From positions 1 through 55,574 of the IMG/VR virus record IMGVR_UViG_3300002053_000020: a stretch of 55,574 bases of DNA; one strand, given 5' to 3'. The notes below the pieces were generated by a model that searched no databases, was not told the origin of the DNA, and was given only the letters and a program-made list of their open reading frames with translations. The DNA comes from a virus (Duplodnaviria; Caudoviricetes). Positions 8,847 through 44,035 of this stretch are shown here, one piece after another. Position numbers and translations under genes: made by a program. Each line of letters begins with the position of its first letter. The first letter of the stretch is position 1.

Positions 8847-9260
8847 ATGGAACGACTAATCAACGATCCAGACCGTGTGTGGCACTTCCTGAAAGATCTC
8901 GGAGTCCCGGTGATGTATACCGCCGGGATGCAAGGGATCGCTCGGGAAGTGGACGGTGGTCTGATGGGTGCGGTGTTGTATGATGGTTACACAAATAACA
9001 ACATTTTTATGCACTGTGCAGGTAGAGGGAAACGGTGGGTAAGCAAAAGCCTGTTGAAGGCAGCTTTCGCATACCCATTCCAGCAGATGAATTGCAAGAG
9101 GATCACAGCTTGGGTAGATGAATCCAATGTGGACTCTCGTCGCTTTGTAGAAAACGTCGGCTTCGAGGTTGAGGCTACGCTCAAGGGCGCGGCTCACGAT
9201 GGCGGTGATGTCATCCTGTACGTTTTGTGGAAAGAAAATTGTCGATTTATAAAGGACTGA
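8847..9260 (+). CDS. GNAT acetyltransferase-like protein (T7 gp13 / DUF2824-like)
   Basis: AFAYPF...RITAWV..SN..SRRFVENVGFEVE RimJ/RimL-type motif; podovirus position before the ejection proteins. Confidence 0.8.
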   Translation: MERLINDPDRVWHFLKDLGVPVMYTAGMQGIAREVDGGLMGAVLYDGYTNNNIFMHCAGRGKRWVSKSLLKAAFAYPFQQMNCKRITAWVDESNVDSRRFVENVGFEVEATLKGAAHDGGDVILYVLWKENCRFIKD

Positions 9261-24117: not shown

Positions 24118-24799
24118 CTTGCTTCATAACTGCGAAGCTGTCGCCCGTGTACCAAGTTTCTTCTGGCGTACACATCATTGGAATGTCGCCATTCTCTGTG
24201 TTCTTGTGCAGCCATATCCTGTTCCTGATGTACTCGTAAGTCTCACCAAGATCCCACACAGGAATATTAATCACATGCACTGGCATCGGCGGGTACCCGG
24301 GCTTGCGCAGCACATCAGCCTTGCGGTAGTCACGAAGGATGGCAACGATGCGCAGCTTGTCAACCTTGTATCCGTTCTTTATTGCTAGCCAACGCAGACA
24401 GTTTAGTTGCCGCTCCCACTCGATGTGACTATCCATCATCACCTTGTACGAACTGGTGACTTTGTAATCATCGAGGGTGTTGTTGTGTAGGTCGCAGCGA
24501 TCGAACTGACCTGATAGTTTCCATCCGTCAACGTCAGCGTACAGTCGATCCTCGGCAATTACATTCTCGCCTTGGTCTGCACGTTCTAGGATGGTGTGTA
24601 CCGCCTGACCCAGCAATGACCAGATGCGCTCGGTTACATCCTCAACGATTGCATTGGCATGGCGCTTACGCAGCACACGCAACTGAGGTGAATCGATCAG
24701 CTTGGTTACGCTGATGTCGCTATTGCCAGCAGAGTAAGGATCATTCTTTACTGCGTTGACAATAGCTTCGGGTAGATTGTGTAGGTTTGTAATGTTCAC
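23906..24799 (-). CDS. PD-(D/E)XK exonuclease, Cas4/RecB-like
   Basis: GQAVH, E-x-R-L, SGQFD, DYKVT and QLN motifs; C-terminal CAEYCEVANFC cysteine cluster. Confidence 0.8.
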   Translation of the reverse strand: MNITNLHNLPEAIVNAVKNDPYSAGNSDISVTKLIDSPQLRVLRKRHANAIVEDVTERIWSLLGQAVHTILERADQGENVIAEDRLYADVDGWKLSGQFDRCDLHNNTLDDYKVTSSYKVMMDSHIEWERQLNCLRWLAIKNGYKVDKLRIVAILRDYRKADVLRKPGYPPMPVHVINIPVWDLGETYEYIRNRIWLHKNTENGDIPMMCTPEETWYTGDSFAVMKQGGKRAIKIYERREDAEQGLADGYFVEERKGVYRRCAEYCEVANFCEQWRSVGKDSAAAIGSDGSGDGDNW

Positions 24800-25089
24800 A
24801 GGAGTGTCTTTGCGTTGTAAAGTTCTTCTGCGAGCAAGTATCCCTCAAGAGGCCATAGCTTGTCAACAGCATCTTTATAAGCAATCTGTTCGCCCATAGC
24901 TTGATTGAAGTTCTTTGGATCTACGCATGCGCTTTGACCCCATACCTTGTAGCCATTCTTCATGTGAAGGCAACAGAATGTTGTTCTTCCATCACCCATG
25001 TCATGATAGGTAGTCTTTTCTACTTTGGCAAGCATGTCTGTTAGGTTAACTTTGTTGCGCTGCTTTATTTCATTCCTGTCAATCAGCAT
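24796..25089 (-). CDS. N4 gp49 / Sf6 gp66 family protein
   Basis: TFCCL..KNGY.V.G.SACVDP.NF....G..IA...A..KLWPLEGYLL. Confidence 0.85.
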   Translation of the reverse strand: MLIDRNEIKQRNKVNLTDMLAKVEKTTYHDMGDGRTTFCCLHMKNGYKVWGQSACVDPKNFNQAMGEQIAYKDAVDKLWPLEGYLLAEELYNAKTLL

Positions 25090-25107
25090 ACAGTCTCCAT
25101 ATGTAAG

Positions 25108-25194
25108 TGGTGGAGGGGGCAGGATTCGAACCTGCACGGAACTAGCCGACCACGGAGTTACAGTCCGGTGCCCTTCCTACGAGGCGTCCCCTCC
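25108..25194 (-). tRNA. tRNA-Tyr(GTA), type II, CCA encoded
   Basis: GGAGGGG/CCCCTCC acceptor stem, A73-CCA; anticodon loop CT-GTA-AC; long variable arm; GCAGG-TTCGAAT-CCTGC T arm. Confidence 0.9.
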
Positions 25195-25445
25195 ATTGCA
25201 GTCTCTCCTGCTGTCACGCCGAAGCACATTACCCTGACGTTACGGGCTGTGACTAGGGTTGCCCCTAGTAGGAAGTCTTACCCCTCCCACTTAACAACGT
25301 GATGGGCTTGATGTTTTGCAGTCGGGCCGACTTGTCCGTATTCTTTCAACGGTGAGCCGATAGCTGTTACTCGTTACCCATCTCCACGGGCGGTCGGGAA
25401 GGCTCCATGTGCTATGGGATGAGCCCCCGCCCGAGGTAAGCAAAC
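25195..25445 (-). ncRNA. Putative structured non-coding RNA immediately 5' of tRNA-Tyr
   Basis: No credible ORF; several stems: CGGGCGG/CCGCCCG, GGCTC/GAGCC, CTAGGG-GCAA-CCCTAG, GTCAC/GTGAC, GCAG-GAGAGA-CTGC. Confidence 0.6.
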
Positions 25446-25449
25446 AAGA

Positions 25450-25812
25450 CTAGAATAGCAGTCTCATTGCAGCATCTTTCTGTTTCTTTGTCGGCGGTTT
25501 GCCAGACTTTTGCCTCAGTTTGTATCTTCGGTGAATCTCATCCCTAGACATTGGCTTGCGCGGCGCATCTTCTCCCTGCCCCCATGCGTATGCTGGTGTG
25601 CAGTTGCGCCCCTTAGCGTCGGGAGCCCAATCAACTATCCGTACAACTTTCTTTGCACGGAAGATCTTCATCATTCTCTGTGCCGTGTAGTGACTACAGT
25701 TAGCCAACTCACCAAGCTGGAAACAGGTGATGCCTTTGTCGCCAGCCCGGTGAAGGTGGAGAACAATGTCACAAAACTTGGCAACATTGATCTTCGTGCT
25801 ATCCATTACCAA
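25450..25812 (-). CDS. Winged-HTH-like DNA-binding protein
   Basis: GITCFQLGELANCSHYTAQRMM...VRIVDW...PAYAWG pattern; basic tail. Confidence 0.6.
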   Translation of the reverse strand: MVMDSTKINVAKFCDIVLHLHRAGDKGITCFQLGELANCSHYTAQRMMKIFRAKKVVRIVDWAPDAKGRNCTPAYAWGQGEDAPRKPMSRDEIHRRYKLRQKSGKPPTKKQKDAAMRLLF

Positions 25813-26045
25813 TCAACGAGATCGTCGTCCTGTTGACGCGCTGCATGCTGGGCACCACCCGCGCCATTGTCAGCCTCAAGATTACCCGACAGATATTGCA
25901 TGCCGTTCTTAGAGGTTCGAGGCCACAGACCACCCTTCCACTTGGTGCCATCTGCAAACTCGATGACAACATTGTGTGACGGTGCCTTGGGGTTGTCGCT
26001 AGCCTTCATGTTCTTGAAGATTGCGATGTTGTTGTACTGAGGCAT
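25806..26045 (-). CDS. Small ssDNA-binding-like protein
   Basis: IFKN...KAP...GLW...SKNG.QYLSG with an acidic C-terminal tip (DDDLVDW); next to ERF. Confidence 0.6.
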   Translation of the reverse strand: MPQYNNIAIFKNMKASDNPKAPSHNVVIEFADGTKWKGGLWPRTSKNGMQYLSGNLEADNGAGGAQHAARQQDDDLVDW

Positions 26046-26048
26046 AGA

Positions 26049-26690
26049 TTATCCCTTCTCTGAAATTTTGGTTTGTAGTTTCTTGGCGATACCTGCGAAC
26101 TTACTGCGAGGAATCTCTTCCCATGTCAGAACTTTCATGGCGTTGAGAATTGTATTCTCATCTACGCTAGCTTGCTCGACCATAACTTTTAGGATTCTGA
26201 TATCCTCTTCGGTTAGCTTCGCGTCTACTTCCACTTCCGCGAACTTCTCAACCTTGGCAAGCGTGTGTGTTTCCTTGTCTGGGTCTTCGTCGATCGGGAT
26301 TGCAAACAATTGGAAAGCCATATACTTGTACGCAATAGACAGTGCCTTGTTGGTCGCCTTATCGCCGGAGTCCATAGCCTCACCCGGAACTACGCAGACA
26401 ACCTCGCTGCCATCTAGCACGGAGCGAACGGTGTACGACATAGTCAGGGTGACGTAGAACAGTGGGTTGCCCCGGCTGTTGACGCGCTCTGATACATCAC
26501 GGCTTAACATCTGTGGAATAATGACGAGGCCAGCTTCGGTCAGGTGGTGCGACATACGGTTGAGAACATCATCGATGCCGCGGAACTTGAAACCTTGTGA
26601 CTCGTTCTTACTATTCTTTGCGATGCCCTTCTCTGCGAAGGATTGCATCACTTGTTGGATACCCTTCAATACTTCTGGTGTTGTGTTCAC
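26049..26690 (-). CDS. erf: ERF-family ssDNA annealing protein
   Basis: KN..QGFKFRGIDDV and GEAMDSGDKATNKALSIAYKY...F.IP...DPD; GTG start with SD AGGAGG. Confidence 0.85.
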   Translation of the reverse strand: MNTTPEVLKGIQQVMQSFAEKGIAKNSKNESQGFKFRGIDDVLNRMSHHLTEAGLVIIPQMLSRDVSERVNSRGNPLFYVTLTMSYTVRSVLDGSEVVCVVPGEAMDSGDKATNKALSIAYKYMAFQLFAIPIDEDPDKETHTLAKVEKFAEVEVDAKLTEEDIRILKVMVEQASVDENTILNAMKVLTWEEIPRSKFAGIAKKLQTKISEKG

Positions 26691-26879
26691 ATAGCCTCCT
26701 GTTGAACGGAACTGCATTGTGCCATAGATCTAGTCTGGCGTGTCAAGATATCTTCATTGTATTTTTTAATCGATGTACGATAATTGATAGTTGCCATAAA
26801 GATATTGTCCGAAGTTTGTATATGTTTATCGGACAGAGACCGGTTGCAAGTTTTCAAAACTAGGTGTAGCATCCGTCGT

Positions 26880-27015
26880 TATAATGGTTTTGACCTTATA
26901 GTTCCTAGTAAGTAACTAAGTTAAAATAAAAACAACTTATGCTTAGTAGTTAAGAAAATAATATAGTTGAATTAGTTCTTAGTAGTTATTAGTTCCTAGT
27001 AAGATAGTTAACTAT
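26880..27015. repeat. AT-rich region with iteron-like repeats, putative replication origin
   Basis: TAGTTCCTAGTAAG at 26899-26912 and 26990-27003; variants TAGTTCTTAGTAGT (26973) and CTTAGTAGTT (26942); divergent intergenic region before the primase-helicase. Confidence 0.6.
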
Positions 27016-37084: not shown

Positions 37085-37280
37085 TACGTTTCTCCATAGG
37101 TTTTGCTGTCTCTTCCCTGATGAATATGATGACTGGTATGAGAGAGTAGATCAGTGATACAAAGAAAGCCCCAACCTGTGGGACACCTACGGCACCCGTC
37201 ACCATCCAAGATATGACAAATGTAACCAGCATACATAGGACAGTGAATGTGCCTACTGTTAAATTGATAAGACTAACCAC
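36918..37280 (-). CDS. Membrane protein (2 TM segments)
   Basis: SD GGAGG before GTG; two hydrophobic helices; 3' end overlaps the next gene. Confidence 0.5.
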   Translation of the reverse strand: MVSLINLTVGTFTVLCMLVTFVISWMVTGAVGVPQVGAFFVSLIYSLIPVIIFIREETAKPMEKRNEHWITPSIVDDGCSAPAAFTSQPSKRKRRNAGDSKAKPVQSGGDGTSVKTAGNN

Positions 37281-37599
37281 GCTTCCTCCATACACAGTCC
37301 ATGCGGTATTCAAATTCATCTATGCTGATACGACCAAGAGTTTCACTGTTAACAGGATGATAATAAAAATGTCTTGTGCCTCGATCGTATACTCCGCACA
37401 GATGCTTGACCTCCTTGCCCATCTCTATGTACCCAAGATTGCCTTCGCTTCCACCCATGAATGGACAAGGCTTATTCAGATGGAACTGGAAGATGCCACT
37501 GTCATTCTTGTAGCGCCAGCAATGCTCCGTATCTGCGGCATCTGATACTGAACAATAGGCTAGAGCTATTAGTGATGCTATTCCGATAGTTTTAATCAT
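37273..37599 (-). CDS. Secreted Cys-containing protein
   Basis: MIKTIGIASLIALA signal peptide; four further Cys. Confidence 0.6.
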   Translation of the reverse strand: MIKTIGIASLIALAYCSVSDAADTEHCWRYKNDSGIFQFHLNKPCPFMGGSEGNLGYIEMGKEVKHLCGVYDRGTRHFYYHPVNSETLGRISIDEFEYRMDCVWRKRG

Positions 37600-37796
37600 T
37601 CGTTCATCTCCTTCCATGCCTCTATGGTTTTGCGGATCTTGGTTAGGATCATGACATCCTCAACTGAACTAGCCGGGAGCGCATCACACAGGCTTTCAAT
37701 TAAATCTATTGAGTTGGCTGTGATCATAGTCATGTTCGATGTATGTCCTGATGGATGGATCACATTGAGGTGACACTTGATGTGGTAGTTTTCCAT
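37596..37796 (-). CDS. Hypothetical protein
   Basis: SD AGGAG. Confidence 0.55.
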   Translation of the reverse strand: MENYHIKCHLNVIHPSGHTSNMTMITANSIDLIESLCDALPASSVEDVMILTKIRKTIEAWKEMNE

Positions 37797-37804
37797 GTGG
37801 TCTC

Positions 37805-37876
37805 CTATGTTGGTGTTAGTATTATGATAAAAACAGCAGCGATGAAGTACACCAAGAAATAACTTAGTCTAGGCAT
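37805..37876 (-). CDS. 23-aa hydrophobic micropeptide (not in the ORF track)
   Basis: MPRLSYFLVYFIAAVFIIILTPT*; SD AAAGGA; fills the intergenic gap exactly. Confidence 0.5.
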   Translation of the reverse strand: MPRLSYFLVYFIAAVFIIILTPT

Positions 37877-37878
37877 GA

Positions 37879-38298
37879 TCAGATTCCTTTCAGAGAACAG
37901 ACATACTCAGCAGCCTTAGCCGCGGGAGATCCTTGGGGGATGCGCATGAAGTCTGCTTTGCTATTGTCTATACGATTGACCACCTTGCCAGAGGCAAACC
38001 AATCTGCGTACCAGATTTGCTCGGTGACTTTATATAGACCTCGGATGCAATCGTATGTGGTGATGTTGGCGTACGATAGAGAATCTCTGCGAGCCGTGTT
38101 GAAGTTGACGACCTCTGTGGTATGGCGCATCTCTCCGACCTTGCCGCTTACTGCGAAGCTTGTGTGTTGCCAGAAAGTTAAGCCTCGACTAGGCATCATG
38201 GATACCATATTCCACTGGTTGCCAGCTGGAGTAAGTGATGCCGCGTGTGCCGTTCCAATTAGTAGGAAAATGCTGATAAGTACCGACAGTTTCTTCAT
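37879..38298 (-). CDS. Secreted protein, surface-adhesin-E-like domain
   Basis: MKKL...AHA signal peptide; YDC...Y....Y....G.V....F..IP.GS....YVC pattern. Confidence 0.6.
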   Translation of the reverse strand: MKKLSVLISIFLLIGTAHAASLTPAGNQWNMVSMMPSRGLTFWQHTSFAVSGKVGEMRHTTEVVNFNTARRDSLSYANITTYDCIRGLYKVTEQIWYADWFASGKVVNRIDNSKADFMRIPQGSPAAKAAEYVCSLKGI

Positions 38299-43501: not shown

Positions 43502-43576
43502 GGCGGGATAGCTCAGGGGTAGAGCAGAGGGCTCATAATTCTCAGGTCACTGGTTCAAATCCAGTTCCCGCAACCA
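43502..43576 (+). tRNA. tRNA-Met(CAT), initiator-like, CCA encoded
   Basis: Cloverleaf; anticodon loop CT-CAT-AA; 1:72 mismatch (G.A); anticodon stem GAGGG/TTCTC. Confidence 0.9.
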
Positions 43577-43585
43577 GTCACAGAG

Positions 43586-43825
43586 TCAAGCTAAGGCAAC
43601 GCAGACATACTGACATCCAGCCTATCGAAGAAGCTCACTACAGATGTCGAGGTCGGGATTCCCGGGGAGAGTCATTGATACTCCATGATCCGGAAATAAA
43701 CCTTGGAAACCCGTGCGGCTAGGATCTAGAGCCTAGTGCCTTAGCCCCTTTACTATGGCCAGCGCCGTGCGGTAATGAAGATGACTAAGGGATCACGGAC
43801 TCCCAGATTCTAAGCCATAGACCTT
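43586..43825 (+). ncRNA. Putative structured non-coding RNA between tRNA-Met and tRNA-Trp
   Basis: GCTAAGGCA(43590)/TGCCTTAGC(43737) closes a multi-helix domain; CTATGGC(43753)/GCCATAG(43814) closes a second domain; no ORF. Confidence 0.65.
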
Positions 43826-43829
43826 TTAT

Positions 43830-43880
43830 GCCCCCTGCTCCACCTACTTTGAGATTGGTGTGACCGGGGGGCTTTTCTTT
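43830..43880 (+). terminator. Terminator-like hairpin inside the tRNA cluster
   Basis: GCCCCCTG...CGGGGGGC followed by TTTTCTTT. Confidence 0.55.
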
Positions 43881-43884
43881 CTAC

Positions 43885-43958
43885 TACTCATTGGTGTAAC
43901 AGCAGCATTGCAGTCTCCAAAACTGTTGGCGGGGGTGCAAATCCCTCATGAGTAGCCA
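43885..43958 (+). tRNA. tRNA-Trp(CCA), CCA encoded
   Basis: TACTCAT/ATGAGTA acceptor stem; loop CT-CCA-AA; variant T loop TGCAAAT. Confidence 0.85.
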
Positions 43959-43959
43959 T

Positions 43960-44035
43960 TGCAAGGTAGCTCAGTTGGCAGAGCAACTCCCTGTTAAGGA
44001 GAAGTGCGTAGGTTCGAAGCCTGCCCTTGCAGCCA
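43960..44035 (+). tRNA. tRNA-Asn(GTT), CCA encoded
   Basis: TGCAAGG/CCTTGCA acceptor stem; G73; loop CT-GTT-AA; TTCGAAG T loop. Confidence 0.9.

Follow-up and report, generated by a model that had tools for sequence, protein, structure and literature searches.

What is made from the 255 nucleotides (nt) that separate, on the - strand, the stop of an upstream open reading frame (ORF; 25450) from base 1 of a tRNA-Tyr gene (25194) in the phage genome IMGVR_UViG_3300002053_000020? The window, as we call the whole stretch of DNA analysed, is that IMG/VR record at its full length of 55,574 nt, and an earlier reading of its letters alone (the sequence-only reading) had taken the interval for a single structured RNA of ~250 nt tied to the tRNA. 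We find there no single 250-nt RNA but a mosaic, in which two conserved RNA families are combined, one nested in the other; that neither family depends on the tRNA; and that both are undescribed so far, with no Rfam entry. The first family consists of modules A and C, which flank the second, module B; with the adjoining tRNA-Tyr, an ordinary one, these make three independent units, and we hold this anatomy of the interval and the homology of its RNA units with high confidence. The features on which the argument rests are as follows.

25387..25433, - strand: module A, a hairpin whose outer stem a1 encloses a further GGG../..CCC stem and a loop that is conserved
25427-25433 with 25387-25393, - strand: stem a1 (CGGGCGG/CCGCCCG)
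25407-25413, - strand: A-loop bases AGCACAU, pairing with the C loop AUGUGCU
25301..25382, - strand: module B, an inserted hairpin (88.2 bits at 25308-25377 with our covariance model R1)
25377-25382 (GAUGGG) with 25301-25306 (CCCAUC), - strand: stem P1 of B, plus internal loops
25322-25363, - strand: near-invariant 42-nt core of B, with the bulge CUA, P2, an internal loop, P3 and a loop
25198..25291, - strand: module C, with c1, c2, c3, a pseudoknot, the A-pairing loop and c4
25283-25291 with 25267-25275, - strand: stem c1, which includes GGAG/CUUC
25253-25268, - strand: c2, the GCAA hairpin (CUAGGG-GCAA-CCCUAG)
25244-25247 with 25231-25234, - strand: stem c3
25236-25240 (ACGUC) with 25216-25220 (GGCGU), - strand: pseudoknot of C
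25223-25229, - strand: C loop AUGUGCU, pairing with module A
25198-25211, - strand: c4 hairpin GCAG-GAGAGA-CUGC, ending 3 nt before tRNA base 1

The mosaic layout is plain from the relatives of the window. A blastn search with 25100-25460 matched 50 of 50,697 phage records, solely over a core of ~50-60 nt (~25311-25370), and 0 records covered 80% of the query. In the relatives L057-L061, which share the upstream ORF and whose downstream protein is 91-95% identical to that of the window, the intergenic region is ~190 nt long and holds A and C as contiguous modules, with neither B nor tRNA; in L075 and L076 (protein 89% identical) a small hairpin lies at the A/C junction. This junction is a site tolerant of insertions, being empty in the L057 and L042 types, occupied by small hairpins in L075, L093/L097 and L095, and occupied by B in the window. 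What lies after c4 also differs: an ORF in L057, L093, L095 and L097, tRNA-Tyr at 3 nt in the window and in L091, L092 and L094, and more structured modules in L075, L042, L096, L098 and L099. At the L091 junction the tRNA-Tyr is near-identical, with compensatory stem changes, and the environmental relatives X7, X19 and X20 also have C followed by tRNA-Tyr. No tRNA lies beside A+C in 11 of the 13 distinct homologues, and together with the absence of B and tRNA from the 91-95% relatives this removes the single tRNA-dependent unit of the sequence-only reading. A search of IMG/VR for relatives of the window through the upstream ORF confirmed none, and the pattern GGGGTAANACTTCCTAC returned only the five relative contigs already known plus two chance matches. 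A coding reading by way of a 50-codon frame (25291-25443) was rejected, as that frame spans A and B and is impossible in relatives without B.

Module B has a consensus made of an arbitrary P1, a 3-nt bulge CUA, a P2 of UCNGCU with GGCN'(C)GA, an internal loop with CA opposite AYAAGUN, a P3 of CCGU/ACGG and the loop UUGAAAGAAU. The core of the R1 family can be written CUAUCNGCUCACCGUU.AAAG.AUACGGA.AAGUNGGCN'CGA with any closing stem and with N pairing with N', and the window copy fits it. Exact-pattern scans of IMG/VR returned 23, 40 and then 49 stretches, the 9 new ones of the last scan being 8 chance matches and L051, a real variant, and the same approach over 185,579 species genomes returned 2 bacterial contigs; alignment A1 holds the 41 distinct gap-free copies from IMG/VR and the two bacterial genomes. 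Members score 60-90 bits with R1, and the next best match reaches 15 bits (in 0.5 Mb). Covariation among homologues, on which the idea of a structured RNA had turned, is found in both families, in P1 and P2 of B (41 copies) and in A+C (13 sequences). In A1, 97.6% of the cells are paired vs. 91.0 +/- 0.5 after shuffling (0 of 500 shuffles reach the native value), and sliding the partner strand lowers pairing to 18-35%. The N:N' pair of P2 is paired in 41/41 copies (AU 21, GC 13, GU 3, UA 3, CG 1), its neighbour is CG in 38 and UA in 3, and three P1 pairs covary. P3 is fixed by the search pattern, but L051 carries a G-C to C-G swap in P3 together with two swaps in P2. The local hairpins AGC/GCU and GUCG/CGAC, preferred within B by minimum free energy (MFE) folding, were tried and rejected, with 0 compensatory pairs and one pair unpaired in 15/41 copies.

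The closing stem of B has a different sequence in every phage. Across the family it is real, at -21.3 kcal/mol with native flanks vs. -14.1 with shuffled flanks, and in 25 of 42 copies no more than 1 of 30 shuffled flanks does as well as the native one. Within the loop, columns 31 and 36 of A1 (25347 and 25342 in the window) change jointly from G...A to U...G in 4/41 copies and never singly; the double change occurs in the unrelated contexts of L005, L009, L029 and L039, which suggests that these two bases may interact.

The carriers of B are diverse, comprising T4-like Aeromonas phages, phages of Enterobacter, Serratia, Salmonella, Acinetobacter, Pseudomonas and Stenotrophomonas, and small uncultured phages; the cultured ones include Aeromonas phage Aeh1, Enterobacter phage vB_EclM_CIP9, Pseudomonas phage Astolliot and Acinetobacter phage YMC13/03/R2096. 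In 4/4 GenBank hits that were opened, the core has no annotation of its own and lies among tRNA genes, on their strand and a few nt past a ...CCA end. Among these four, the record of Aeromonas phage AS-zj annotates no tRNAs, and we identified the neighbouring ones by reading its sequence. P2 keeps its U-G pair in 41/41 copies and B lies on the tRNA strand in 14/14 loci where it is placed in a tRNA cluster, so that the strand of B is fixed. The neighbouring tRNAs vary by phage (Asn, Ser, Pro, Thr, Met, Val, Tyr and others), and 23 of the 34 scanned B loci contain no tRNA, so B needs none. In its carriers B normally takes the place of a further unit in a tRNA array or caps another conserved stem. 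Nor is B bound to one kind of stem: it is found as the tip of plain stems between tRNAs, of a stem followed by a U-run (L021), and at the A/C junction in the window. A terminator-like site lies 3' of B in L010 and L025, and no sigma-70-like site was found near the stand-alone copies, in a scan that is weak since their hosts are not identified. No match to B was found in 5,426 E. coli genomes and the PLSDB plasmids, and among 151 genomes of the order of G001, the seed genome, only G001 itself has it. ORF clusters that overlap B were set aside as artefacts that the conserved RNA gives rise to.

Together, modules A and C make up one double-pseudoknotted RNA of ~165 nt. A pattern internal to C gave 16 IMG/VR loci, which with the metagenome relative L075 and the window make 13 distinct A+C sequences. 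The 7-bp helix between the A-loop and the C-loop is paired in 13/13 (alignment A4), with the A-loop strand being part of no search pattern, and two of its pairs covary (UA 8, GC 3, AU 1, GU 1 for one, and CG 8, GC 5 for the other). Over the whole structure 98.1% of cells are paired vs. 87.0 +/- 1.4 after shuffling (0/500), with slid controls at 26-45%, and the covariation score is 0.304 vs. 0.102 (0/500 shuffles). Stem a1 is present in 12/13 single-sequence folds, which include at least 7 unrelated sequences, and c1 and c2 appear as adjacent hairpins in 10/13 folds. The stem c3 varies from CCC/GGG to UCA/UGA, c4 shows three pair types, and c2 differs in sequence by lineage and is capped by GCAA, CUUG, UUCG and other loops. 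The pseudoknot ACGUC/GRCGU is paired in 13/13 and changes from U-G to U-A twice, which breaks an alternative small UUCG hairpin. Its G-U pair is kept in 11/13, and together with the invariant U-G pair in P2 of B this bears out the placement of the RNA on the - strand in the sequence-only reading.

Our model of A+C, R2, takes B as an insertion and gives the window 136 bits over 25193-25444, and the window has all the features by which we define the family, namely the loop helix, c3 together with ACGUC/GRCGU, the GAGAGA hairpin c4, and the position between genes of the winged-helix and gp49/66 families. Homologues of the winged-helix protein (30-71% identity) lie just upstream of A+C in 9/16 loci, and homologues of the gp49/66-family protein (43-95% identity) lie 34 to 461 nt past the C pattern in 11/16; this synteny with both flanking genes holds down to ~30-47% protein identity. 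A+C is a constant feature of its gene neighbourhood in a clade of uncultured phages. Among GenBank phages R2 finds c4-sized pieces only, in Morganella phage IME1369_02 and Stenotrophomonas phage SOVA965, and it finds 0 matches in 151 bacterial genomes, a result that shows little since there is no positive control among bacterial genomes.

Every stem listed in the sequence-only reading can be read on the - strand where it was placed, including GCAG-GAGAGA-CUGC ending 3 nt before base 1 of tRNA-Tyr. Under comparison, a1, CCGU/ACGG (which is P3 of B), GGAG/CUUC, c2, CCC/GGG and GCAG/CUGC stand, and two enclosing stems fall: the 3' half of TTACC/GGTAA lies inside the B insertion and is missing in relatives, and the outer GTCAC/GTGAC keeps ~3 of 5 pairs in other lineages, with a 3' strand that never varies. 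Stems that had been missed are the A-loop/C-loop helix, ACGUC/GRCGU and the true P2 of B. The conserved loops are that of B and GAGAGA, and the c1 loop differs in nearly every lineage, so that the proposed set of three loops sharing an R-A-G-A ending is not supported; the T-loop likeness drawn from that set is weakened accordingly.

The expectation that the RNA matches no Rfam family holds. We used Rfam version 15, with gathering thresholds plus permissive E cut-offs. At gathering thresholds the whole window gives 4 tRNAs only, and 24900-25700 at E up to 10 gives tRNA plus only four sub-threshold matches (11-17 bits). The best match in the L057 intergenic region, RAGATH-20 at 14.3 bits vs. 101.4, is at chance level; no match is seen in the L075 array with E up to 5; and in 16 B loci no family overlaps B. 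The interval matches none of the GOLLD, ROOL, T-box, RNase P and riboswitch families, and the ribozyme families of Rfam 15, including HDV-like (hepatitis delta virus-like), hammerhead and twister, give no match even at E up to 10. The GOLLD, ROOL and theta (HDV-like) RNAs that the sequence-only reading had called to mind are thus not represented here by any family match. A literature search by sequence strings and keywords, with supplements outside its scope, found neither RNA described.

Around the interval, the genes and tRNAs are the following.

25108..25194, - strand: tRNA-Tyr (anticodon GUA), called by ARAGORN; its variable arm is long and its CCA end is encoded
25450..25812, - strand: upstream ORF, 120 amino acids, a predicted winged helix followed by a basic C-terminal tail; the gene is in synteny with the RNA
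24796..25089, - strand: downstream ORF, 97 amino acids, also in synteny with the RNA, N4 Gp49 / Sf6 gene 66 family (Pfam PF13876, Phage_gp49_66, E 1.4e-23)
43502-44035, + strand: further tRNA genes (Met, Trp, Asn), elsewhere in the 55.6-kb phage genome

The tRNA is also recovered by Rfam RF00005 at 25108-25194 (47.6 bits vs. a gathering score of 29). The order Erf-like gene, winged-helix gene, RNA, tRNA-Tyr, gp49/66-family gene and exonuclease marks a recombination/replication operon. The upstream protein matched no Pfam or PHROG family; its AlphaFold2 model has a mean predicted local distance difference test value (pLDDT) of 80 and weak MarR-like fold matches (E at least 1.2e-3), and the modelled fold appears to be a generic winged helix that is uninformative about the RNA. 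The closest cultured phage, found via primase/helicase, is at most 38% identical, and a cultured host for A+C is therefore not known.

Scans of the - strand revealed neither a sigma-70-like promoter nor a terminator-like site inside the interval, and no terminator-like site across 24700-26900. With the interval devoid of such sites, co-transcription with the operon is the simplest reading. Runs labelled as marine sediment, seawater and mangrove metagenomes contain the window stretch or parts of it, and four of the runs containing it were examined. Contigs from two metatranscriptome libraries (relatives ~90-95% identical) cover ORF-tRNA-C-B-A-ORF, an example being X20 record 7, 24989-25614, and one DNA run has the identical arrangement. 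We take these metatranscriptome contigs as a weak hint of transcription, as they may derive from DNA and give neither ends nor strand.

Several side observations concern the company that A, B and C keep in other phages. We call X frame a stem with the 5' half CAASACGCAUGRGGAUUG and the 3' half CAGUCCYCAGYCGUGUUGG around unrelated inserts; at least 127 sites are found in at least 120 IMG/VR loci (L107-L224; e.g., L160 6881-7287, L139, L141, L171, and L091 5799-6150), and also in L075 760-1030. The 3' half follows within 320 nt in 117 of 127 sites among the matches listed, for a total length of 58-138 nt, and the frames are often in tandem with ~180-210 nt spacing, a few tips having T-arm-like hairpins. 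There is no Rfam match to the X frame in L075, and its strings were not found in the literature. A second frame, Y, has the stem base GGGGAAAGCGG...GCGAGUACCCC, covarying to GAGG.../...CCUC, and bears B or other tips (L008, L032, L033, L036, L046 and L075 1030-1190). B sits on X or Y frame stems in L022 and L040-42 and in L008, L032, L033, L036 and L046. In L075/L076 an ORF-free stretch of ~620 nt runs through A, the small hairpin, C, an X frame, B, an X frame and two Y-type frames.

Unusual tRNA-like sequences occur in this company too. In L002 (~1622-1815, Pseudomonas phage Astolliot) there is an unannotated tRNA-like gene whose D-arm and T-arm/acceptor/CCA parts lie ~130 nt apart, and which may be an intron-containing tRNA. 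L043 has a sequence like tRNA-Tyr, missed by ARAGORN, with a GUA anticodon loop, a CCA end and a variable arm that is long; it lies ~350-440 nt upstream of B, and an X frame comes directly after it. Pieces resembling C are seen in the two GenBank phages named above. In the Morganella phage (L102, 660-770) an element that resembles c3, ACGUC/GGCGU and c4 (R2 25.4 bits, from the c4 part) lies between spanin genes and the next gene, with a hairpin and U-run after it that is terminator-like by eye. In the Stenotrophomonas phage (L101, record 37140-38063) ~920 nt without an annotated gene lie directly upstream of four tRNAs, with a c4-like hairpin (R2 20.8 bits) and, by eye, a resemblance to a long X-frame insert and to the B-side module of L026/L030. 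The contig of L042 has an Rfam Betaproteobacteria-1 RNA (9070-9191, - strand, 83.8 bits) ~1.9 kb from A+C. A doubtful generalization of these arrangements is that these phages and many others have RNA islands, modular arrays in which interchangeable tips, B among them, would be presented on conserved base stems of several kinds (plain stems between tRNAs, the X and Y frames, and the scaffold of A and C). The cassettes would be shuffled between phages, and the tips would serve as decoys or aptamers, each directed at another host factor. If true, such islands would parallel, at the RNA level, both the anti-defence protein islands and the tRNA arrays of phages.

As to what the interval does, we lean slightly toward one answer, namely that it gives rise to a non-coding RNA (25195-25449, - strand) that is co-transcribed with the operon, receives its 3' end from RNase P and carries B as a portable binding module. 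Taken by themselves, co-transcription and release by RNase P seem reasonably probable; a trans-acting role of B as a binding module is possible at best, and we offer it tentatively. The operon transcript would fold into A+C with B protruding at the junction, and a cut by RNase P at tRNA base 1 would free an RNA of ~250 nt (A-B-C), RNase P being expected to set the 3' end because the RNA abuts the tRNA. The A+C pseudoknot would serve as a stable scaffold for B and may in addition have a role of its own tied to the flanking genes. The invariant core of B, its arbitrary stem and the number of its carriers fit a portable module that binds in trans, and B might act as a decoy or sponge that engages some conserved partner from host or phage, perhaps serving host takeover or counter-defence, the role proposed for phage tRNA arrays. 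One intergenic region thus yields two well-supported RNA families, and with B present in cultured phages its role is directly testable. That B is nested in other conserved stems suggests that phages may swap RNA modules as they swap genes.

A number of points weigh against this answer. The tight synteny of A+C with its flanking genes suits regulation in cis no less than action in trans, and the transcript ends, the processing and the binding are predictions. Columns 24-48 of A1 are fixed by the search patterns, which makes the invariance of the B core partly a matter of ascertainment, and the exact-pattern searches found only one divergent member. The A+C set was gathered by a pattern internal to C and includes close relatives, so that its shuffle counts overstate independence. 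The closing stem of B in the window itself is weak (-18.9 kcal/mol with its native 3' flank, a value reached by 10/30 shuffled flanks), and no common neighbouring protein was found around 48 B loci. Finally, the MFE of the interval is -87.8 kcal/mol vs. -82.2 +/- 5.2 for shuffles (z = -1.08; 30/200 shuffles as stable), no better than shuffles, and we discarded whole-interval folding of a single sequence as uninformative about structure.

The main rival, which we regard as rather unlikely, is that A+C is a cis co-transcriptional element akin to a processive antiterminator or anti-Rho RNA, with B and the tRNA as passengers, and that it would carry RNA polymerase through an untranslated, hairpin-rich stretch into the downstream genes. 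This would agree with the position of A+C, which always heads the non-coding stretch, followed by an ORF at 34 nt (L057) or by up to 461 nt of structured RNA (L075), and with an interval that has neither promoter nor terminator. The c3- and c4-like element in Morganella phage IME1369_02, which precedes a by-eye terminator-like hairpin and U-run and then a gene, is in keeping with it as well; the match spans only 23 nt. Passages of PMC9378689 on the put RNA of HK022 demonstrate that phage RNAs are capable of antitermination; the HK022 immunity region is unlike A+C by motif scan and by R2, however, and put RNA, at ~70 nt, consists of two stem-loops that lack any long-range pairing between loops. 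Also against it, no terminator-like site was found on the - strand over the 24700-26900 stretch scanned.

Ribozyme and DNA-level roles are less likely than a cis role. That one or both RNAs are self-cleaving ribozymes which cut the polycistronic transcript is improbable. Like small ribozymes, B does combine a short, highly conserved core with a closing stem of arbitrary sequence, A+C is a compact double pseudoknot, and both RNAs adjoin tRNAs in phages, as the HDV-like theta ribozymes do (PMC10879173). On the other side, no ribozyme family of Rfam 15 is matched, the outer borders of A+C have no conserved nucleotides, and B has the topology of a simple bulged hairpin with sequence-invariant helices, which is more typical of a binding site. 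A single new 250-nt RNA tied to tRNA-Tyr, for example through T-loop-like loops on the tRNA elbow, is very unlikely, and the relatives go far to refute it: tRNA-Tyr comes 3 nt after C in two lineages and in X7, X19 and X20, and the L043 array contains its tRNA-Tyr-like gene, but most distinct A+C RNAs have no tRNA at the junction and most lack B, the loop motif is not conserved, and the tRNA neighbours of B vary by phage. Least probable is that the hairpins work as DNA, e.g., as single-strand recombination sites that shuffle cassettes. This proposal suits the sharply different contents of the site among close relatives, the use of B as a tip of unrelated stems and the unrelated inserts of the X frame stems, and by sequence alone a single-strand DNA hairpin on the same strand would be compatible, but it sits poorly with G-U pairs that are kept and would be A-C mismatches on the opposite strand, with the 14/14 agreement in strand with tRNAs, and with the stable RNA tetraloop caps GCAA, CUUG and UUCG.

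Among known systems, GOLLD/ROOL, the theta ribozymes and put RNA resemble these RNAs in context or logic, with no likeness in sequence or fold. A catalogue of IMG/VR (PMC10690425) reports 8,495 candidate structured RNAs with covariation evidence and names tRNA-like candidates among them; the main-text passages of that paper describe neither B nor A+C, its motif lists being in supplements outside the scope of this comparison. Binders of the tRNA elbow (T-box stem I, RNase P and the L1 stalk) use a double T-loop, two conserved T-loops that interdigitate; here the c1 loop is not conserved, and the loops of B and of GAGAGA are. GOLLD and ROOL are phage-associated structured RNAs that are often tRNA-adjacent; they are much larger than A+C (165 nt) and B (~80 nt), and the present RNAs differ from them in being modular and in having no Rfam match.

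For the HDV family, no Rfam match is found in the window region or in L057, and the helix order here is not HDV-like, the HDV fold being a nested double pseudoknot. The HDV-like theta ribozymes of gut phages adjoin tRNA genes (PMC10879173), and the likeness lies in a phage RNA next to a tRNA; here the RNA is 5' of the tRNA and the topology is different. The put RNA of HK022 acts alone in the early operon and has two stem-loops with little or no spacer (passages of PMC9378689), which gives it a superficial likeness to the 3' part of C, where c3 and c4 follow each other 1 nt apart; it lacks the loop-loop pseudoknot to a second domain that A+C has. Homology to putL/putR was not found: a motif scan of HK022 27.4-30.2 kb and a search of L103 with R2 both gave nothing.

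Closest in kind to B, and not homologous to it, are rnaC and rnaD of T4 (species 1 and 2), small stable RNAs that by the T4 record lie in the phage tRNA cluster on the tRNA strand and adjoin a tRNA; B is similarly placed in other phages. They are 139 and 119 nt long, compared with a conserved core of 42 nt in B, and R1 run with filters off on T4 67-75 kb has no match in rnaC/rnaD (70908-71171), its best match elsewhere reaching 7.2 bits. B joins these RNAs in kind, if not in descent, and work on it could bear on the old question of what the non-tRNA RNAs in phage tRNA clusters do.

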